The notes: generated by a model not told the origin, from the sequence alone. A stretch of 64,000 nucleotides of DNA from Alphaproteobacteria bacterium (GCA_030148665.1 JASBSZ010000008.1:7284-71283); one strand, 5' to 3'. Numbered from the stretch's first letter, positions 2,947 through 15,577 are shown. Translations and numbers: made by a program.

Positions 2947-4109
2947 CACCAGGCCAGCCCCCTTGCCGTCACCGGGATCACGTCCTCGACCTTGTCGCCG
3001 CGCACCAGCACATACCAGTCATGGACATTGCAGGTGGGGTCGCAATGGCCGGGGATCAGCCTGATCTTCTGGTTGATCTGCAGCTTGCCCTCGGGGTCGG
3101 CGATCACGCCGTGTTCGTCGGAACACTTGATGTATTCCACGCCTTCGATGCCATGAACCTTGGGCAGGCCGCTATCGACCGACTGGGCCTTCAGACCCGC
3201 ATCGACCACCGCCTTGTCGGGTTTTGCATGGCTCATCACCGAGGTCAGCAGGAACAGCGAGCTGGCAAACTGGCTTTGGCTGATCGGCACACCGTTTTCA
3301 TCCAGGATACGGCCGTAATCGGCATCCATGAAGGCGTAAGAGCCGCATTGCAGCTCGTTATAAACGCCCGAGGCGCCCTCGAAATAATAGCTGCCGGTGC
3401 CACCGCCACCAATGATGTCGCATTCCAGCCCCTGCGATTTCAGCGCCTGAAAGGCGTCCTTGACCATGGCAACCGCGATATCGATCTTTTCCTTGCGGTC
3501 CTCATAGCGATCAAGATGCTGCATCGCGCCCTGATAGGCCTGAATGCCGGAAAATTTCAGCCCCGGAGCCGCATCGATCAGCTTGGCAATATTGACCACA
3601 TCCTGAGATGTCGTCACCCCGCAACGCCCGGCGCCGCAGTCGATTTCGACCAGACATTCGATCTCGGTCCCGTGCCTTTCGGCAGCGGCAGAAAGATCGG
3701 CCACGTTTTCGGGATCATCCACACAGACCAGCGTGCGCACGCCCAGTTTCGGCAGGCGCGCAAGGCGGTCGATCTTGGCGGGATCGCGCACCTGGTTCGA
3801 GACCAGAATGTCCTTGATGCCATTGCGGGCAAAGGCCTCGGCCTCGCTTACCTTCTGGCAACAGATGCCGCAGGCACCGCGTTCGATCTGCATTCTGGCG
3901 ACGTCGGCCGATTTGTGCATCTTGCCATGTATGCGCAGACGCATCCCCATCGCATCGGCGTCGGCCTGCATCTTGTCGAGGTTCCTTTCCAGCTGATCCA
4001 TGTCGATGATCAGGCAGGGGGTCTGGATTTCGTCAAAGCTCATCCCCGGCTTGGCGGGAATGTTGTAGCCGACCTCGTATTCCTCGAAATTCATGTCCTT
4101 CATGGTCAT
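2946..4109 (-). CDS. bhcC: beta-Hydroxyaspartate aldolase (alanine-racemase-fold PLP enzyme, D-threonine aldolase / DSD1-like family)
   Basis: 387 aa. Family resemblance: ...RIHGKMHKSADVARMQ..., C-terminal ...IPGHCDPTCNVHDW. AGGAGG SD precedes ATG 4109. Operon context. Confidence 0.75.
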   Translation of the reverse strand: MTMKDMNFEEYEVGYNIPAKPGMSFDEIQTPCLIIDMDQLERNLDKMQADADAMGMRLRIHGKMHKSADVARMQIERGACGICCQKVSEAEAFARNGIKDILVSNQVRDPAKIDRLARLPKLGVRTLVCVDDPENVADLSAAAERHGTEIECLVEIDCGAGRCGVTTSQDVVNIAKLIDAAPGLKFSGIQAYQGAMQHLDRYEDRKEKIDIAVAMVKDAFQALKSQGLECDIIGGGGTGSYYFEGASGVYNELQCGSYAFMDADYGRILDENGVPISQSQFASSLFLLTSVMSHAKPDKAVVDAGLKAQSVDSGLPKVHGIEGVEYIKCSDEHGVIADPEGKLQINQKIRLIPGHCDPTCNVHDWYVLVRGDKVEDVIPVTARGLAW

Positions 4110-7376: not shown

Positions 7377-8567
7377 TCAGAACGATCGCGCCACGGCCAG
7401 GCTCAGATAATCGCTGTTGGCAAGGGCGGCCACCGGATCGGAAGGGGCGGGCGTGTTGAAGAAACGCCCCTCCAGCGTGACCTGCCAGGATTCGCCGATG
7501 CGGCGCGTGCCCTTGATCGACATCACCCTAGCCCCGCTGCGGGCGTCCAGCAGCACGCCGGCCAGCAGATTCGTGCTGGCAAGGTCATTCAGGGTCAGCC
7601 GGGCACCCAGGAACAGATCGTTGTCGAAAATGGTGACCGGGGCCAGCACCGGATCGCGCCCGTCGCGGCTGTATTCCGCCAGCAGGCCCAGATCGGCGCC
7701 CGAAGGCAGCCCTCCGGGCAATGTCCATTCGAAACCCGCAGTCACGGCGTTGAAGCGCGGGCCCTGCCCGGCCCGGTTGATGGCCTCGACCTTCCACAGC
7801 CAGTCGCCTGCCGTATATTGCAGGTCCAGCCCGATCTGCGAAATGTGATCGTAGATCGGCGTCAGGCTGGGGCCCGTGGGCATCAGGACGGGCGCGCGGC
7901 TGGTGCCTTCGAACCAGGACAGGCCGATGTCCCAGTCGCCGATGCTGTTTGACCAGCGCAGCGCGAAGTCGACATGTCCCCGGCCGCCGGGCCCGGTATA
8001 TGCCGCCGGACCCACCGGCAATGGCGGGCCCAGGCGGGTGCCGGCGCGCGGATAGACACGGGGGCGGAAACCCGGCAGCGCGTAGAGCGAAAACGTGCCG
8101 AAATCACCGTAGAGGCTGAGGCCCAGCATCGGCTGGCCCAGCTTGGCGGTGCCGTCGATACCTTCCTGCATGTCGTCCTGATTGACGATATCGACCAGAT
8201 GGCGCGATTCCGTGACGCCCCAGAAAACCTTGTCGATACCGGCGGTCAGGCTCCAGCCGTCGCCCTGGTGCAGCCAGTAGGCCTCGCGCAGGTCGGTGTG
8301 GCTGCGCCCCTCGCCTCTGTTGTCCCACCGGCTGAACAGCGACAGGACAACCCGGTCGGAATCGCCCAGATCGCCGGTGATCCGCCCATCGAAGGTGACC
8401 GAGGGAAACAGGCGGCGATTGTCGCCACCGGGCAATGGTGCCTCGGTATAGCCGCGCAGGCCCGCGCCCAGCGCGCCGGTGAACTCCCAGCTCTGGGCCA
8501 GGGCCGGCGCGCCGGCAATCGCGGCCAGACCGACGGCAAGCCAGAGCGCCCTTTTCGTCGTCCTCAT
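7377..8567 (-). CDS. Predicted outer-membrane beta-barrel protein, last gene of the ABC/LolA-like operon
   Basis: 396 aa. Signal peptide MRTTKRALWLAVGLAAIAGAPALA-QS. Alternating amphipathic, Gly/aromatic-rich sequence. C-terminal ...LSLAVARSF (terminal Phe typical of OM barrels). ATG 8567 overlaps the upstream stop (ATGA). Confidence 0.6.
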   Translation of the reverse strand: MRTTKRALWLAVGLAAIAGAPALAQSWEFTGALGAGLRGYTEAPLPGGDNRRLFPSVTFDGRITGDLGDSDRVVLSLFSRWDNRGEGRSHTDLREAYWLHQGDGWSLTAGIDKVFWGVTESRHLVDIVNQDDMQEGIDGTAKLGQPMLGLSLYGDFGTFSLYALPGFRPRVYPRAGTRLGPPLPVGPAAYTGPGGRGHVDFALRWSNSIGDWDIGLSWFEGTSRAPVLMPTGPSLTPIYDHISQIGLDLQYTAGDWLWKVEAINRAGQGPRFNAVTAGFEWTLPGGLPSGADLGLLAEYSRDGRDPVLAPVTIFDNDLFLGARLTLNDLASTNLLAGVLLDARSGARVMSIKGTRRIGESWQVTLEGRFFNTPAPSDPVAALANSDYLSLAVARSF

Positions 8568-9388
8568 CTGATATTCCTCAGATTGCCCTTGCTGAAGGTG
8601 GCCGCGCTCAGCCCCGTGCCGAAACGCCAGTCACCGTATTTCAGCACCGTCGTGCGACCCGTCTTGAGATTCTTCATGGTCAGCGTGCGCGCGCGCCAGA
8701 AACGGCCCTTGTACAGCTTGTAATCGGCAAGGTTCAGCACCTTGACCATCTTGCCCCGCCGGTCGAGATATTCGATCTTTTCCACACGATAGGTCTTGCT
8801 GTCGAACCAGGTGATCAGCCTGCTGTAGCCCGAATTGCGATAGGCGGGCTTGCGGGCGACAATCAGGCAGCTCCGGCTGCCGCAGGGTTTGCTGCCCAGA
8901 TATTCATAGGTGAACTTGCCGATCTCGGGGGCGGCGATGTCCTCGTAGGTGAATTCGCTGCCGAAAAAGGCCCCCGTCTTGTTGGACGAGGAAATCCTCT
9001 TGACCCTTTTCAGCGCCGGCAGGTACAGCCACTGGTCGTCATCGGCGCCGACCCTGGCATGGGTCAGCAACAGCGTGCCCTTCATGTCGGCCGGGCTGTC
9101 GAAGATGGCGATGGACATGTCGCCGCCCTTGTCGCCGGGAACCTCGAGCATCATCATGCGCAGGCTGCGCTTGCGCGTGTTGCCGCGGCGATCCTGCAGG
9201 ATCATGGTCATCCGCACCTGGGCGTCGCGCCAGCCGGAATCGCGCCGCTCGGCCTCGCGGGCGATTTCCAGGCCGCGCCCGGCCGCCCGGGATGCTGTCT
9301 GCGCCTGCGCGGGGGCTGCGGAAAAACCGGACCAGATGCCGGGCATGGCAAGAGCGGCGGTCAGTACCGCAATGGCAAACCTTTTCAT
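8564..9388 (-). CDS. Periplasmic LolA-like 'outer membrane lipoprotein-sorting' family protein
   Basis: ORF 8564..9571 trimmed to ATG 9388 (AGGAG SD). Signal peptide MKRFAIAVLTAALAMPGIWSGFSAAPAQA. The mature sequence resembles the LolA_like family usually encoded next to FtsX/ABC genes. ATGA overlap with the ABC ATPase stop. Confidence 0.65.
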   Translation of the reverse strand: MKRFAIAVLTAALAMPGIWSGFSAAPAQAQTASRAAGRGLEIAREAERRDSGWRDAQVRMTMILQDRRGNTRKRSLRMMMLEVPGDKGGDMSIAIFDSPADMKGTLLLTHARVGADDDQWLYLPALKRVKRISSSNKTGAFFGSEFTYEDIAAPEIGKFTYEYLGSKPCGSRSCLIVARKPAYRNSGYSRLITWFDSKTYRVEKIEYLDRRGKMVKVLNLADYKLYKGRFWRARTLTMKNLKTGRTTVLKYGDWRFGTGLSAATFSKGNLRNIR

Positions 9389-10281
9389 GACGGACTCCTT
9401 TCGGACAGCTTCACGGGGGTTTCGAACCGGGCGAGATAGCGCTCGGGGGTGGCGGTGAAACGCTCGCGGCAACGCACCGAGCAGAAATGATAGCGTTGCC
9501 CCTGATGTTCGGTGAACAGGGTCGAGATCCAGGCGTCGATGGCCATGTTGCAGACCGGATCGCGCACCCATTCGTGGTCGTCCTGCTTGCGGTCGCGCAG
9601 ATGCCCGTCCTCAAGCCACAGGATACGGTCGGCCACATCCTCGACCCGGCGGTCATGGGTGACGATCAGCACTGCGCGCCCCTCGTCCCGGGCGATGTCA
9701 TGCAGCACCATCAGCACGTCCTGCCCGGACTTGCTGTCGAGGTTGCCGGTGGGCTCGTCGGCGATGATCAGCCGCGGCTGGTTGATCAGGGCACGCGCGA
9801 TGGCGACGCGCTGCTTTTCGCCGCCCGACAGGGTGCCGGGCAGCGCGTTGCGCCGCTTGGACAGGCCCAGCCGGGCCAGCAGTTCATCGGCCCGCTCCTG
9901 CGCGGCCCGCACGCCGCCGGGCGCCAGATGGGCGGGAAACAGCACGTTGTCGCGCACGCTGAGGGCTTCGAGCAGGTTGAACGCCTGGAACACGAAACCG
10001 ATGGTGCGGGCACGCAGCCTGGAAACGCGCGCATCGGACAGGGTCGAGATATCGACCCCGTCGATGATCACGCTGCCGCTGTCGGGCCGCAGCAGCGCGC
10101 CCAGGATCGACACCAGCGTCGTCTTGCCCGAGCCCGACGGCCCGGTGATGGTGACCATTTCCCCGGATGCCACATCCAGTGACACCCCATCGACCGCGCG
10201 TACCAGGGTGCGGCCTTCGCCATAGGTCTTGGTCAGGTTTTCCGCATGCAGGATCGTTGATGACATTTTTCCTGTCCTCAT
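9385..10281 (-). CDS. ABC transporter ATP-binding protein (MacB/LolD-type) with a C-terminal YHS/TRASH-type metal-binding domain
   Basis: Walker A GPSGSGKT, signature LSGGEKQR, Walker B LIIADEPT. The C-terminal 60 aa, VRDPVCNMAIDAWISTLFTEHQGQRYHFCSVRCRERFTATPERYL..., match the YHS pattern DPVCxM...YxFCSxxCxxxF. ATG 10281 overlaps the permease stop (ATGA). Confidence 0.85.
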   Translation of the reverse strand: MRTGKMSSTILHAENLTKTYGEGRTLVRAVDGVSLDVASGEMVTITGPSGSGKTTLVSILGALLRPDSGSVIIDGVDISTLSDARVSRLRARTIGFVFQAFNLLEALSVRDNVLFPAHLAPGGVRAAQERADELLARLGLSKRRNALPGTLSGGEKQRVAIARALINQPRLIIADEPTGNLDSKSGQDVLMVLHDIARDEGRAVLIVTHDRRVEDVADRILWLEDGHLRDRKQDDHEWVRDPVCNMAIDAWISTLFTEHQGQRYHFCSVRCRERFTATPERYLARFETPVKLSERSPS

Positions 10282-11387
10282 TGCTGAAAGGCGGTTACGG
10301 GATCGACGGCAAGCACCCGGCGCACCGGAATTGCGGCAGCGATCAGCGACACCACTACCGCCAGCCCGCCCGTTCGGATGAGTGAATCGCCGCTCATGCC
10401 CAGGCTGACCTTGGGCACGAGGGCCTCGGTCAGGGGGATGGCCAGATAGATCAGCCCCACCGCCAGCCCGTAGGCCAGCAGCCCGATGACCAGCGCCTGA
10501 ACGAGGATTGCCGCCCAGATCACCCGGTCGCGCACGCCAAGTGCCTTGATCACCGCCAGTTCCCGTTCACGGTCGGAGATGTGCGAATAGATGATGAACC
10601 CGGTCAGCAGCACCGCCAGCGCCCCGCCGATGATGGTCATCATCCAGATGATTTCCAGCCCCATCTGCACCGCAATCGAAAAATCACGACGTGAAAAATC
10701 CTGCCGTGTCAGGGCGTTGACCTTTTCCACCTGGGTTCGGATACGTTCTGCCAGCACCGCCGGATCGACCCCTGGCCGGGCATCGACCAGCAGATAGCTG
10801 ACCGCACCGACCGACGACATGGTATCAGCCAGATCGGACAGGGTCACGAAACTGACCGAGTTGGCCATCGAAAAGGTATCGGCCGAAAACCCCGCAACCG
10901 TAAAGTCGCGTCCGGCGATGCGCACCTTGTCGCCGATCTTCAGCCCCGCATCCGAGGCAAAGATGTCGGGCACGATCGCCTGACCCGGCCCCGGCAGGCG
11001 CGCGCCGGCCGCCGATTTCCACGGTCCCGCACGGCCGTCGCCCTGCTCGATTCCCACGACATAGGAAAACCAGCTGCGCCCGCCGGCCTGGATGACCGAG
11101 TTGAGATAGAGAATCGGCGTGACCTTGGCGACGCCATCGACCGCGGCCACCGCGTCGATCTTCCAGTCGCTTAGGAACGAGGTCGTCATGTGCATGTTGC
11201 CGACCCCTTTCTGCATGACCCAGACATCGGCGTCGGTCTTGTCGATCAGGGCCACGATCTGGCGCGATTCTCCGGTAAAGACCCCGGCAAAGAACAGCAC
11301 CAGCGCAAAGGCCCCCGCCACCGCCGCGACACTGGCAAGCAGCTGCTGCGGCGCGGCCAGAAGTTCCCTGTAAGTCCAGTTCAACAT
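10278..11387 (-). CDS. ABC transporter permease, FtsX/MacB-type (paralogue 2)
   Basis: 369 aa. TM1, then a large periplasmic domain, then three C-terminal TMs typical of the FtsX family. Confidence 0.8.
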   Translation of the reverse strand: MLNWTYRELLAAPQQLLASVAAVAGAFALVLFFAGVFTGESRQIVALIDKTDADVWVMQKGVGNMHMTTSFLSDWKIDAVAAVDGVAKVTPILYLNSVIQAGGRSWFSYVVGIEQGDGRAGPWKSAAGARLPGPGQAIVPDIFASDAGLKIGDKVRIAGRDFTVAGFSADTFSMANSVSFVTLSDLADTMSSVGAVSYLLVDARPGVDPAVLAERIRTQVEKVNALTRQDFSRRDFSIAVQMGLEIIWMMTIIGGALAVLLTGFIIYSHISDRERELAVIKALGVRDRVIWAAILVQALVIGLLAYGLAVGLIYLAIPLTEALVPKVSLGMSGDSLIRTGGLAVVVSLIAAAIPVRRVLAVDPVTAFQQ

Positions 11388-11391
11388 CGTT

Positions 11392-12522
11392 TCACCCCCT
11401 GAATGCCGTTGCCGGATCCAGCCGCATCAGGCTGCCCAGCGGTGCCAGTGCGCCCAGAACCGCCAGCACCAGCGCGATCAGCGCGGTGCGCCACAGGGCC
11501 GTGGGATCCAGCGTCTGCAACATGTAGACCGGGGCGAGCGATTCGATCAGCGACCCCAGCCCGGCCCCGATCGCGATGCCCAGCGGAATGGCCAGCACCA
11601 CGGTTCCCAGCGCCTCGGTCATCACCCCGATCACGAGGTGGCGCGTGTCGAACCCCAATGCACGCAGCACGCCCAGGCTCTTGCGGCGGGTACGCACGGC
11701 GGCATAGGAAAACAGCCCGATGGCTAGCGCCCCGATGCCATAGCTCAACCCCAGCAACAGGTTCATGATCGGACCCAGCAGTTCGCGCCCCAGATTTTCG
11801 TCATTGGCAGCCAGCTGCGCAGGCAGGATGGCCGAGGCCTCGGGGACGTTGGCCGATATGTCGGCGGCCACGGCCACGGGGGAAAAACCCTTTTTCACAT
11901 CGACCATCAGAAAACTGAGCAGCGGAAAGGCCGCGATGTCGGCGGCAACATCGGATTCGAAATAGAAATCGATCAGCCCGTCATAGGTGAGAAAGGCAAA
12001 GGGCGTGAACAGCGCGGCGGCCCCGTCGGCAATACCCGAAACGGTAAAGTCATAGGCCGACAATGTCAGCGTGTCACCGACACTCAGCCCATAGCGCTCG
12101 GCCAGCGACCGGTCGATGACGATCTCGCGCGATTTGCGGGGCGCGCGCCCGGCGATCAGGCGGCTCGGCCCACCCTTGTCGTCATAGACCAGAACGATGA
12201 TCGGCGTCAGACGTCCGTCGGCCTCGTAGATCGCTGAAATCGAGGTCAGCGGATGCGCGCTGGCAACGCCGGGGCGGGATTCCACGTCACGCCGCGTGCG
12301 CTGGGGCAGGATCGAGCGTGCGGCAAGGAAATTCGTGACCCCCTTCTGGGACACGATGACATCGCCGCCACGCTGCAACACGGCCTGGCGCAGCTGGGTA
12401 TACGAACCCGTCAGAAAGCCTTCGAGAACCAGAATCTCGGCCAGAATCGCGGCAATTGCCAAGATCGTCAGTGCCGTTCTGGCGGGCTTGTGGACAGCGT
12501 TTCCAAGGGTCAGGGAAAACAT
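11392..12522 (-). CDS. ABC transporter permease, FtsX/MacB-type (paralogue 1)
   Basis: 376 aa. Same architecture as paralogue 2. AAGGAG SD precedes ATG 12522. Confidence 0.8.
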   Translation of the reverse strand: MFSLTLGNAVHKPARTALTILAIAAILAEILVLEGFLTGSYTQLRQAVLQRGGDVIVSQKGVTNFLAARSILPQRTRRDVESRPGVASAHPLTSISAIYEADGRLTPIIVLVYDDKGGPSRLIAGRAPRKSREIVIDRSLAERYGLSVGDTLTLSAYDFTVSGIADGAAALFTPFAFLTYDGLIDFYFESDVAADIAAFPLLSFLMVDVKKGFSPVAVAADISANVPEASAILPAQLAANDENLGRELLGPIMNLLLGLSYGIGALAIGLFSYAAVRTRRKSLGVLRALGFDTRHLVIGVMTEALGTVVLAIPLGIAIGAGLGSLIESLAPVYMLQTLDPTALWRTALIALVLAVLGALAPLGSLMRLDPATAFRG

Positions 12523-12569: not shown

Positions 12570-12782
12570 TCATGCGGATTTCTCTGGTTCCATGTCCGGC
12601 GCAGGCGCTGCGCGTTCGGGCGACGCGTCGTCGGCAGCGTCCTTGCCGCCCCCGCAGCATCCGCCGCGCCCGACCCTGGCCCCGCTCCGGTGGCCCTTGC
12701 CATGCCGGTGACCGAACAGGTGCATGCCGCCCATGCCCCCGAGCAAGGCCAGCACAACCCAGTTTTCCGCAATCCAGTTCAT
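12570..12782 (-). CDS. Small His/Cys-rich membrane peptide (DUF2933-like), first gene of the operon
   Basis: ORF 12570..12842 trimmed to ATG 12782 (AGGAGG SD). MNWIAENWVVLALLGGMGGMHLFGHRHGKGHRSGARVGRGGCCGGGKD...: one TM helix followed by an HxxxHxHxxxH and CC cluster. 70 aa. Confidence 0.6.
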   Translation of the reverse strand: MNWIAENWVVLALLGGMGGMHLFGHRHGKGHRSGARVGRGGCCGGGKDAADDASPERAAPAPDMEPEKSA

Positions 12783-12846: not shown

Positions 12847-12868
12847 CTTCCAGTCTATGGAAGGTCAA
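12847..12868 (-). promoter_or_regulatory. CueR/MerR-type copper-box promoter
   Basis: Minus strand reads TTGACCTTCCATAGACTGGAAGCC. This is a -35 TTGACC fused to the dyad ACCTTCC-N7-GGAAGcc, with the same register as the E. coli copA promoter (TTGACCTTCC-N5-CTGGAAGG). It lies ~65-85 nt upstream of ATG 12782. The -10 is weak (CATGAC/ATGACT at 19-20 bp spacing). Confidence 0.6.
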
Positions 12869-12985: not shown

Positions 12986-13978
12986 TCAGGCAGCCCGTGT
13001 ATCCCCGCCGGTGGCAAGGCCAGCCTCGTTCCAGGCCACCATGCCGCCGCGCAGCACGCGAACGTCGCGCGCACCGGATTCGGCCAGCAGGCGTGCCGCC
13101 AAGGCCGAGCGTCGATCGGTGCGACAGACGGCAATGATCGCCCCCTGCATGGCCTCGGTCAGTTCATCGAGGCGGTCGTCCAGCTCGTCCAGGGGAATGT
13201 TGACGGCGCCGGGTATGTGGCCGTGTGGGCCGGAAAACTCGTCAGTGCCGCGCACATCCAGCACAAACGGCGCATCCGCCGCGCCCAGCCGGGCGTGCAG
13301 ATCGTCGATCGCTGCCCAGGAAACCGGCCCGCCCCGCAGACGGCGGATCAGGCGCGGCACAAAGGCGATGGTCGCCAGCAGGGCCAGCGCCAACACCCCG
13401 TAGCGGATGGCCGAGGCATCGCCACCCAGGGCCTCGCGCCCGGCATATCCCAGCCAGGTATAGGCCAGCGCGCCGGGGGCCATGGTGAAAAAGGATGTCA
13501 CCACATAGGACACAAAGGGAATCCGCGTGAGCCCGAAGGCATAGTTCGACAGGTTGAAGGGAAAGACCGGGACAAGACGCACAAAGGCGACAAAGCGCCA
13601 GCCCTCGGCCTCGACCCCACGCACGAGGCGGCCCAGCCTGCTGCCAGCCTTGCGCGCAACCCAGTCGCCGGCCAGAAAACGGGCGATCAGAAAGGCCAGC
13701 GCGGCCCCGATGGTCGCACCCGTCAGGTTGAACAGCGTCCCCGCGACGGGGCCGAACATAGCCCCGCCCGCCAGGGCAAACAGCGCGCCGGGGGCAAAGA
13801 CGACGGTGCCCAGCGCATAGGCGACGACATAGACCGCCGGGGCAAGAGCGCCAAATCCCGACAGCCAGGCGTCCAGCGCCGCCGGATCCAGCCGGTCGCG
13901 GTTCAGCCCGACAACCAGCACCCCGACACCCAGCAATACCAGCAGGGCCAGGCGCCCCATGAACTCATTCCTGCGCAT
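12986..13978 (-). CDS. TVP38/TMEM64 (DedA-related) membrane protein fused to a C-terminal rhodanese domain
   Basis: Multi-TM N-terminal part (...FVRLVPVFPFNLSNYAFGLT...) plus rhodanese (VLDVRGTDEFSGPHGHIPGAVNIP...AVCRTDRRSA active-site loop). Start is ATG 13978 or ATG 13960; both have SD-like sequence. GTG 14011 is less likely. Confidence 0.7.
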   Translation of the reverse strand: MRRNEFMGRLALLVLLGVGVLVVGLNRDRLDPAALDAWLSGFGALAPAVYVVAYALGTVVFAPGALFALAGGAMFGPVAGTLFNLTGATIGAALAFLIARFLAGDWVARKAGSRLGRLVRGVEAEGWRFVAFVRLVPVFPFNLSNYAFGLTRIPFVSYVVTSFFTMAPGALAYTWLGYAGREALGGDASAIRYGVLALALLATIAFVPRLIRRLRGGPVSWAAIDDLHARLGAADAPFVLDVRGTDEFSGPHGHIPGAVNIPLDELDDRLDELTEAMQGAIIAVCRTDRRSALAARLLAESGARDVRVLRGGMVAWNEAGLATGGDTRAA

Positions 13979-14831
13979 TGTCGTTCCTTCCGTCCTGTTG
14001 CGTCCGATCACGCGGGTCGGGCCCGCTTGCCGGACCCAGGGCCGGCTGGATCAGCATTCGGTCCAGCCACTGGTCGCGAAGGCTGCGAAACTGCTCGATC
14101 CCGATTTCCATGTCGTCATGGCCCCTGGCGGGCTGGGCGATATATGTGCCCAGCAGCCGATCCCACCATGTGAGGTTGAACCCGAAATTGCTGTCGGTCT
14201 CGCGCCGGTCAACGGAATGGTGGACGCGGTGCATGTCGGGCGTGACCAGAAACAGGCGCAGGAAGCGATCCAGCCATGCGGGCAGGCGGATGTTCGAGTG
14301 GTTGAACATGGCGGTTCCGTTCAGGATCACCTCGAATATCAGCACGGCGACAGCCGGCGGGCCCAGCGCCAGCACCGCGGCCAGCTTGATCCCCATCGAC
14401 AGCACGATTTCCAGCGGATGAAACCGCAACCCCGTGGTCACGTCGATGGCCTGATCGGCATGGTGCATCCGGTGCAGCCGCCATAGCGCGGGCACGAAAT
14501 GGAACACCACATGCTGGAGATAGATGACGAAATCGAGGATCACGACCGAGGCCAGGATCGCAACCCAGCCCGGAAGCTGGACGATATTGAACAGACCCCA
14601 GCCATTGCGCTGGGCCATCAGCGCCAGGCCGACGGCCACCACCGGGAATGTCAGACGTACGACAATGGTATTGATGACGACGACCCCCAGATTGTTGGTC
14701 CAGCGGATCAGCCGCGGGATTTCGATACGCCGGCGCGGCACCGCCAGTTCAAGCGCCGCCATGGCAATCAGGATTCCCAGAAAAACCGCCAGGCGAACGG
14801 CACCTTCATTTGTCAAAAGCAGCTCGGTCAT
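13965..14831 (-). CDS. Fatty acid hydroxylase / sterol desaturase family membrane protein
   Basis: ORF trimmed to ATG 14831 (MTELLLTNEG...). His boxes HFVPALWRLHRMHH and DMHRVHH. The 3' end abuts or overlaps the TVP38::rhodanese start. Confidence 0.75.
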   Translation of the reverse strand: MTELLLTNEGAVRLAVFLGILIAMAALELAVPRRRIEIPRLIRWTNNLGVVVINTIVVRLTFPVVAVGLALMAQRNGWGLFNIVQLPGWVAILASVVILDFVIYLQHVVFHFVPALWRLHRMHHADQAIDVTTGLRFHPLEIVLSMGIKLAAVLALGPPAVAVLIFEVILNGTAMFNHSNIRLPAWLDRFLRLFLVTPDMHRVHHSVDRRETDSNFGFNLTWWDRLLGTYIAQPARGHDDMEIGIEQFRSLRDQWLDRMLIQPALGPASGPDPRDRTQQDGRNDNAQE

Positions 14832-14844
14832 GTTCGATACCCCT

Positions 14845-14865
14845 TGTGGAACAGGTGATTCCACA
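14845..14865. promoter_or_regulatory. Inverted repeat in the divergent hydroxylase/ArsR promoter region (candidate ArsR operator)
   Basis: TGTGGAA-N7-TTCCACA: 14845-14851 and 14859-14865 form a perfect 7-bp dyad. An ATTCCA direct repeat follows immediately. The 80-nt spacer 14832-14911 is relatively AT-rich. Confidence 0.45.
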
Positions 14866-14911
14866 TTACATTCCAATAATCGCTTGAATGATATAATGAA
14901 GGGACCCCCCG

Positions 14912-15577
14912 ATGTCAATCAGCCCCAAGCTGAAGCTGTACGAAGCATTCGCCGCGATCGGCCGCGCGCTGGGAAACGCGCATCGGCTGGACATCCTGGA
15001 ACACCTGGCCCAGGGCGAACGCGGGGTCGAGGCGCTGGCCGCAAAGCTGGGCCTGACCACGGCCAACACCTCGCAACATCTTCAACATCTGAAACAGGCA
15101 GGGCTGGTCGAATCCCGCAGGCAGGGGAAATTCATCCTTTACCGCCTGTCCGATGACAGCGTGCAGAGGCTGCTCGCCGCCCTGTTCGAAGTGGGTGAGC
15201 GCAACCTCGCCGAGGTGGACAAGGTTCTGCGCGATTACTTTCAGGCCCGCGACGCGATGGAGCCGGTCTCGCCCGACGAGCTGATCGCCCGCTCGCGCCA
15301 GGGGCTGGTCACGGTGCTGGACGTGCGCCCCCGCGACGAGTTCGAGGCCGAACATCTGCCCGGCGCGGTCAACATCCCGCTGTCCGAACTGGAAGAAAGA
15401 CTGTCCGAGCTGAACCCCGAGAAAGAGGTCGTCGCCTATTGCCGGGGCCCCTATTGCGTGCTGTCGTTCGAGGCCGTGGCCAGGCTGCGCGATCACGGGC
15501 TCAGGGCGCGACGCCTCAGCGACGGCCTGCCGGAATGGCGCCTGGGCGGGCTGCCGGTGGAAAGCGGCGCCGAATGA
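14912..15577 (+). CDS. ArsR/SmtB-family transcriptional regulator fused to a rhodanese domain
   Basis: HTH HRLDILEHLAQGERGVEALAAKLGLTTANTSQHLQHLKQAGLV, plus rhodanese (VLDVRPRDEFEAEHLPGAVNIP...AYCRGPYCVLS). Confidence 0.8.
   Translation: MSISPKLKLYEAFAAIGRALGNAHRLDILEHLAQGERGVEALAAKLGLTTANTSQHLQHLKQAGLVESRRQGKFILYRLSDDSVQRLLAALFEVGERNLAEVDKVLRDYFQARDAMEPVSPDELIARSRQGLVTVLDVRPRDEFEAEHLPGAVNIPLSELEERLSELNPEKEVVAYCRGPYCVLSFEAVARLRDHGLRARRLSDGLPEWRLGGLPVESGAE

Follow-up and report, generated by a model that had tools for sequence, protein, structure and literature searches.

Copper resistance in bacteria is explained today by P1B ATPases, RND (Cus) pumps, multicopper oxidases, and chaperones, and we know of no MacB-fold ABC machine that has a place in this picture. 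Nor is any type VII ABC ATPase, to our knowledge, gated by a ligand from the cytoplasmic side. MacB-fold machines do not transport their substrates across the inner membrane; they convert an ATP-driven closure of their cytoplasmic domains into movement in the periplasm (PMC5985334). The control of an enzyme by a YHS domain has been described for the adenylyl cyclase of M. phlei, which is activated by copper only if its C-terminal YHS domain is present on an 8-residue linker, and which, in a manner reminiscent of ABC ATPases, is active as a dimer of head-to-tail subunits whose interface holds the active sites (PMC4626032). According to Ettema (2003), as cited in PMC4626032, the conserved ligand set of YHS/TRASH domains consists of an Asp and three Cys residues. 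In the copper pump LpCopA, a terminal metal-binding domain serves as a copper sensor that relieves autoinhibition rather than as a site of ion delivery (PMC11970713). For the YHS-like regions of diiron hydroxylases no regulatory function is known, and no metal is visible in the crystal of toluene-4-monooxygenase (PMC4626032), so that a purely structural site is possible as well.

In this study, we analyzed an operon on the minus strand of a 64,000-nucleotide stretch of DNA from an Alphaproteobacteria bacterium (GCA_030148665.1 JASBSZ010000008.1:7284-71283), which as a whole is referred to here as the window. An earlier note on this DNA had proposed that the ABC ATPase of the operon ends in a YHS/TRASH metal-binding domain and that its promoter is of the CueR type. 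The features of the operon are as follows.

12847..12868, minus strand: CueR-type MerR box, TTGACCTTCCATAGACTGGAAG, overlapping a -35 hexamer and lying about 63 nt before the operon's first gene
12570..12782, minus strand: His/Cys-rich small membrane protein of 70 aa, first gene of the operon, with the start MNWIAENW... behind AGGAGG
11392..12522, minus strand: permease A, with a MacB_PCD domain (45.9 bits) and an FtsX C-terminal domain (46 bits)
10278..11387, minus strand: permease B, with a MacB_PCD domain (57.1 bits) and an FtsX domain (50 bits)
9385..10281, minus strand: ABC ATPase with a C-terminal YHS domain, type VII, MacB/LolD-like, 298 aa
9433..9567, minus strand: YHS/TRASH metal-binding domain (Pfam PF04945), residues 239-283 of the ATPase
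8564..9388, minus strand: secreted LolA-like protein (PF17131, LolA_like 182 bits), coupled to the ATPase gene
7377..8567, minus strand: secreted protein of 396 aa, of no known family

By every feature tested, the motor encoded in this operon belongs to the type VII ABC clade. Its ABC_tran domain covers residues 31-178 (124 bits, Pfam), and the closest Foldseek match is the ABC domain of E. coli MacB (5lj9; 44% identity, TM 0.92, normalized to target length), followed by MJ0796, HrtA, YbbA, LolD, and FtsE. The Walker A motif, the Q-loop, the LSGGE signature, the Asp-Glu pair of Walker B, and the His of the H-loop are invariant in the alignment of the ATPase homologues, which argues for a working rather than a degenerate ATPase. 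The public gene call places the start at the second Met and gives a protein of 293 aa. The start of the gene overlaps the stop of permease B, and its stop overlaps the start of the LolA-like gene in an ATGA; through these overlaps, the ATPase gene and its neighbors are translationally coupled. An AlphaFold2 model of the full-length protein, built with 102 homologues, has a mean pLDDT of 86.7; the values exceed 90 over the nucleotide-binding domain and range from 73 to 89 for the tail and from 68 to 75 for the linker. Since the linker is the part of lowest confidence, the model does not fix where the tail sits with respect to the ATP sites. A Foldseek search with this full-length model retrieves the nucleotide-binding domain only, and as the matches end after about 222-228 residues, a YHS tail is absent from all type VII motors of solved structure.

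The best NCBIfam models for the ATPase are LolD, DevA, MacB, FtsE, and YbbA, and the scores are far below every equivalog cut-off. The ATPase is not LolD, as it scores 228 bits against an equivalog cut-off of 307.75 (TIGR02211), and with only 22-23 bits against 362 the permeases are not lolCE, so the system is not LolCDE. It is also not MacB, for which it reaches 214 bits against 966 and to which, not being fused to a permease, it does not correspond in layout. A MacAB-TolC tripartite pump was discarded because the operon is without a gene for a membrane-fusion (HlyD-type) adaptor and the ATPase is a separate polypeptide.

The tail of this motor is a YHS/TRASH domain by every feature tested, namely score, ligand set, and fold. 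The peptide quoted in the earlier note is the exact end of the translation of the reading frame at 9385-10281, and the domain, residues 239-283, corresponds exactly to window positions 9567-9433. It passes the YHS HMM threshold with 37.7 bits against a Pfam cut-off of 30.3 (E 2.1e-9, profile positions 1-44 of 47), and the proposed fusion is thereby confirmed. The same tail scores 41.4 bits in a genome-wide scan, in which it is the only YHS domain of the 2.77-Mb, 48-contig genome. Candidate metal ligands are D241, C244 (9552-9550), C267 (9483-9481), and C271 (9471-9469). In YHS/TRASH domains the cysteines are spaced C-X19-22-C-X3-C, and in the tail C-X22-C-X3-C, the eponymous Y, H, and S all being contained in 'RYHFCS'. 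The three Cys residues as well as P242, V243, M246, D249, F266, and P279 are invariant among 120 homologues with 64-100% identity, and because these columns do not vary, the match to the YHS profile is not a matter of chance. D241 is retained in 114 of the 120, and in 2 of 30 sampled members a Cys takes its place, which results in a Cys4 site. Ahead of the domain stand the nearly invariant junction sequence 'WLEDG-x-L-RDRK' and about 10 residues of linker. As 'RDRK' and W238 are conserved in at least 94% of the homologues, the sequence argues for a constrained, possibly mechanical, coupling between the ATPase and the YHS domain.

A model of the tail alone (AlphaFold2, pLDDT 89.9) consists of four short strands and two helices. 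Foldseek matches this fold to the YHS regions of ToMOH, MMOH, and PHN and to the TRASH protein L24e with probabilities of 0.9-0.99 and TM scores of 0.6-0.67 (normalized to query length), the E-values being weak on account of the small size of the domain. A sequence profile of the tail against the PDB likewise leads to the YHS region of phenol hydroxylase (2inp), L24e, and TmoA (E 2e-7 and 2e-3). The earlier note had described YHS domains as normally found on copper P-type ATPases or as stand-alone proteins. They do occur there, but this description is too narrow, as they are also present on adenylyl cyclases (PMC4626032) and diiron hydroxylases. In fact, YHS is a very large domain family: a profile of junction plus tail, run against 1.84 billion representatives, retrieved 15,381 of them at E <=0.001, dominated by multi-YHS repeat proteins. 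The figure is unusable as a measure of the fusion family, because clustering at 50% collapses the ABC-YHS proteins to very few representatives (e.g., P0102).

The fusion of an ABC ATPase with a YHS domain is a fixed architecture of a large family and not an oddity of one gene. When the joint ABC_tran and YHS architecture was queried, both PF00005 and PF04945 were found in 120 of 120 homologues, these being the best from a collection of 5.8 billion proteins (64-100% identity). In a scan of one genome per species, the ABC-YHS junction is encoded in at least 460 species representatives, which by record title belong to at least seven phyla and comprise Alpha-/Gammaproteobacteria, Thermodesulfobacteriota, Bacteroidota, Chloroflexota, Nitrospirota, Binatia, and Gemmatimonadota. 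Nearly all of the carriers listed are MAGs, and one is cultured, Kangiella shandongensis (locus L050). The junction was absent from the 150 other genera sampled in the taxonomic family of the source organism, where the search yielded just two matches, both of them YHS domains in open reading frames of 860-907 aa. The module is thus accessory and patchy, and it is unusually well conserved between phyla. Its genes appear in the order permease A, permease B, and ATPase-YHS in every related locus with sufficient upstream DNA, 80 loci having been fetched. In two short stretches, one from a Thiotrichaceae MAG (L037:3637-3969) and one from a Spirochaetales MAG (L076:6875-7225), no more of the ATPase than its final 46-65 residues was found, together with the YHS tail, and the upstream permease genes are absent there; they may be remnants or a different, short architecture.

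A link of the ABC-YHS family to copper has support in the genes that surround it. Within 7-kb flanks, a P1B-type (CopA-like) ATPase was found in 15 of the 80 related loci, a second, stand-alone YHS gene in 13, and a MerR/CueR-like gene in 7; by rough reckoning, chance would account for about 1% in the case of a gene with one or two copies per genome. At least one of four copper markers (P1B ATPase, MerR/CueR gene, second YHS gene, or CueR-type box) occurs in 32 loci, and the other 48 have none of them within the DNA fetched. The locus of Kangiella shandongensis, one of these 48, has no recognizable metal gene nearby. Cupredoxins, YHS-bearing CopA, DUF2933, multicopper oxidases, and CsoR were seen as single examples near ABC-YHS operons. 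No single conserved upstream neighbor emerged from the two open reading frames taken per operon, in which 99 Pfam families were counted over 107 frames, a comparison limited by the crude calling of frames in GC-rich DNA. The regulators differ by lineage (CueR box, two-component systems, TetR, and CsoR), while the YHS tail is constant.

In the genome studied here, the operon belongs to a predicted CueR regulon, and this assignment is well supported in silico. The box pattern TTGACCTTCC-N7-GGAAG is matched with 0 mismatches at the ABC-YHS operon (contig C11:20130-20151) and upstream of copA-cueR (contig C33), where it precedes an 826-aa HMA-bearing P1B ATPase and then a MerR-family gene, and with 1 mismatch upstream of a gene for a 76-aa HMA (copZ-like) protein on contig C20. 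As a control, the reversed pattern gave 4 matches compared with 8 for the real one. Two CueR equivalogs score above the curated cut-off in this genome, and together with the shared box they bear out, in silico, the CueR-type promoter that had been proposed. One of the two genes lies directly downstream of copA, where it completes a box-copA-cueR unit (contig C33, L098:3733-6669), and the second is found at contig C25:91937-92311, with a weaker box-like site (2 mismatches) about 4 kb upstream. Among the upstream regions of related operons searched, a convincing box is present in only 4 loci, all of them from Rhodobacterales, and control by CueR is therefore lineage-specific and not a trait of the family.

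By analogy with the cyclase of M. phlei and with LpCopA, we give about an even chance to the reading that the YHS tail is a Cu(I) sensor which gates the hydrolysis of ATP. The motor would serve a type VII (MacB-fold) ABC machine with two different FtsX/MacB permeases, and its tail would sense a cytoplasmic metal, most likely Cu(I) held on the three Cys thiolates with the Asp or a Met nearby. Through the short conserved linker, the tail may affect how the nucleotide-binding dimer closes and thereby the hydrolysis of ATP, so that a cytoplasmic copper load would switch on periplasmic work by way of mechanotransmission. As MacB-fold machines do not transport substrate across the inner membrane, a metal site on the cytoplasmic side is better read as a sensor than as a substrate site. 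In this lineage there would then be two layers of control, the first being transcription under CueR and the second the post-translational action of the tail.

A different reading of the same ligands is that the tail is a structural module similar to a zinc ribbon, in which a permanently bound Zn(II) stabilizes the ATPase itself, the dimer it forms, or the way it docks to the permeases, while nothing is sensed. Strict conservation is equally expected of such a site, and the nearest solved relatives, L24e and the YHS-like region of phenol hydroxylase, are both structural elements. Moreover, Zn(II) may be the bound metal because a Cys3-Asp or Cys4 site suits it, the latter being formed in the 2 of 30 members with Cys in place of Asp. 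However, the corresponding domains of MacB, LolD, HrtA, YbbA, and FtsE work without any such module, and in the single case in which a fusion of YHS to an enzyme was put to the test, it proved to be a copper switch (PMC4626032). A purely structural zinc would also leave the enrichment of copper genes and the predicted membership in the CueR regulon unexplained, and we regard it as unlikely.

The remaining parts of the operon bear on what a copper-gated motor might do. Both permeases have MacB_PCD and FtsX domains above threshold, as expected of type VII permeases, in which a large periplasmic MacB_PCD domain lies between TM1 and TM2 and an FtsX domain at the C-terminus. Permease A is encoded directly upstream of permease B, an arrangement that is kept in related loci. 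In its periplasmic domain, permease B contains the motif D-x-W-V-M-Q-x-G-V-x-N-M-H-M (residues 54-67), with M58 and the M65-H66-M67 cluster, and it has two further Met residues, M242 and M250, near TM2 (residues 242-250). These Met and His residues are retained in 95-98% of 63 homologues. The paralogue permease A reads NFLA where permease B has NMHM, and no conserved Cys, His, or Met columns were found in it. Clusters of Met and His are typical of periplasmic Cu(I) sites, such as those of CusF, CusB, CusA, and CopC; the motif of permease B is a candidate for a site of this kind, and it hints, by a further step, that the work of the machine on the outside may concern copper itself.

The conserved Met/His residues of permease B have also to be considered in connection with a second alternative, in which the tail does not sense copper but takes up Cu(I) from CopZ or a stand-alone YHS protein and either hands it to the membrane domains for export or sequesters it as a buffer. 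Stand-alone YHS genes near the operon (the 13 of 80 loci mentioned above) and the copZ-like gene under the same box in this genome would fit such a relay. However, MacB-fold transporters are without a substrate path through the membrane (PMC5985334), and the analogous terminal domains of P1B ATPases are sensors and not delivery sites (PMC11970713). In addition, no conserved Cys, His, or Met columns were found in permease A and those of permease B are on the periplasmic side, which makes a relay or buffer quite improbable. Less probable still, to the point that we give it very little credence, is a redox or thiol-stress switch in which the Cys triad forms a disulfide or is S-thiolated instead of binding metal: three invariant, closely spaced cytoplasmic Cys residues and the general physiological overlap of copper and thiol stress would suit it, but the domain matches a metal-binding family and has a conserved Asp and a Met beside the first Cys, and the genomic context is metal-specific with redox regulators absent.

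The genes that flank the motor and its permeases vary between lineages. The 396-aa secreted protein is probably an outer-membrane protein; it has no match in Pfam or NCBIfam, and 67 of its columns, including H90 and M147, are at least 95% conserved in 24 homologues. Genes for the LolA-like and the 396-aa proteins are found downstream in 31 of 81 related loci, the latter always alongside the former, and the pair is missing in Chloroflexota and many Gammaproteobacteria. In the Kangiella locus, two open reading frames for proteins of about 123 and 152 aa (L050:3167-3538 and 3647-4105), without a match in Pfam, lie directly upstream of permease A, and three Ketobacter loci (L026, L028, and L065) have frames of similar size in the same positions; these small genes may be lineage-specific members of the operon that replace the LolA-like/396-aa pair. 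The 70-aa membrane protein that leads the operon studied here also has no Pfam match. As its only relative by tblastn (73% identity) is in the closest locus, L004 of the nearest Rhodobacter MAG, and the same search finds none in the other 79 loci, it is a lineage-specific add-on. Beside the operon, at window positions 12986-15577, Pfam identifies a VTT/DedA-rhodanese membrane protein, a fatty-acid hydroxylase, and a divergent ArsR-rhodanese regulator, and a VTT-domain gene also adjoins the ABC-YHS operon in an unrelated alphaproteobacterial chromosome.

If the tail is indeed a Cu(I) sensor, the work switched on in the periplasm would probably be the handling of periplasmic Cu(I) or of an envelope component damaged by copper, a task in which the Met/His motif of permease B may take part together with the LolA-like protein and the envelope protein of 396 aa. 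Taken further, the operon could represent a new class of copper-defense machine, a metal-gated mechanotransmission pump that couples sensing in the cytoplasm to clearance in another compartment, although we consider this wider proposal tentative and its correctness doubtful. In such a pump, Cu(I) on the cytoplasmic YHS tail would license the hydrolysis of ATP, and through the resulting movement the Met/His site of permease B would pull either Cu(I) or an envelope molecule loaded with copper off the periplasmic face. In carriers with two membranes, this cargo would be passed on to the LolA-fold carrier and to an outer-membrane protein dedicated to the task. The machine would do so without any known component of the RND, P-type, or MacA/TolC kind.

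A full-text literature search found no paper on a YHS-tailed ABC ATPase, and no PDB structure of a type VII ABC ATPase with a YHS tail was found, in agreement with the statement in the earlier note that no MacB/LolD-type ATPase with this fusion is known to have been studied. Two candidate precedents were set aside. The YHS of C. jejuni FetA (PMC10783030) is not the same fusion, as it belongs to a different, periplasmic membrane protein, and the paper on the copper stimulon of C. glutamicum (PMC3140484) is not relevant, as it mentions only the cell-division ftsX. The ABC-YHS fusion is already visible in database annotations, and for this reason it is not in itself a discovery. The YHS-tailed motor offers a directly testable hypothesis, namely that metal-gated hydrolysis of ATP powers work in the envelope, for a family that is present in hundreds of species and is repeatedly found beside copper genes. 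If this is true, the poorly characterized YHS domain would gain a second tested function.

Ligand-binding domains at the end of ABC motors are not without parallel, as MetN, ModC, and MalK have C-terminal regulatory domains, which in trans-inhibition bind the transported solute and inhibit the importer. The role proposed for the YHS tail is similar in that a domain attached C-terminally to the nucleotide-binding domain would control how the dimer closes. However, the folds are different (MetN could be aligned only at an rmsd of 8.3), and the expected effect of the tail is the activation of an exporter-type machine by a metal ligand. The nearest solved relatives of the tail, in both sequence and fold, are the modules of monooxygenase alpha subunits (phenol hydroxylase 2inp, ToMOH, TmoA, and MMOH) and L24e, which, unlike the tail as proposed here, are structural parts of enzymes or of the ribosome with no known sensing role.

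Closer in the suggested function are the Cu(I) P1B-ATPases. As in LpCopA, whose cytoplasmic site is a sensor that relieves autoinhibition (PMC11970713), a predicted sulfur-based metal site on the cytoplasmic side is attached to a machine driven by ATP, and among the genomes surveyed some CopA proteins carry YHS domains themselves. In contrast to the present motor, P1B ATPases are pumps of another class and fold, which carry Cu(I) from the cytoplasm through the membrane, while the work of a MacB-fold machine is done on the periplasmic side. The adenylyl cyclase of M. phlei shares with the ATPase a C-terminal YHS domain with an Asp and three Cys residues on a short linker (8 residues in the cyclase and about 10 in the ATPase), as well as a dimeric catalytic domain with head-to-tail arrangement and interfacial active sites (PMC4626032). 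The cyclase, however, is not an ABC ATPase, and its response was seen with Cu2+ in vitro.

The motor itself is closest to the type VII systems. Its nucleotide-binding domain is 39-44% identical to those of MacB, LolCDE, HrtBA, YbbAP, FtsEX, and MJ0796, with TM scores of up to 0.94 (normalized to target length). Like LolC/LolE, the permeases are two MacB_PCD and FtsX proteins that would form a heterodimer, and the gene for a periplasmic protein with the LolA fold is adjacent. Unlike in the Lol system, this protein is a member of PF17131 and not LolA proper, and unlike in MacAB, neither a membrane-fusion protein nor TolC is part of the system. Mechanotransmission, as in the type VII systems, is the expected mechanism (PMC5985334), and the feature that sets the present motor apart from the solved and studied members, all of which are without one, is its predicted metal-binding tail.
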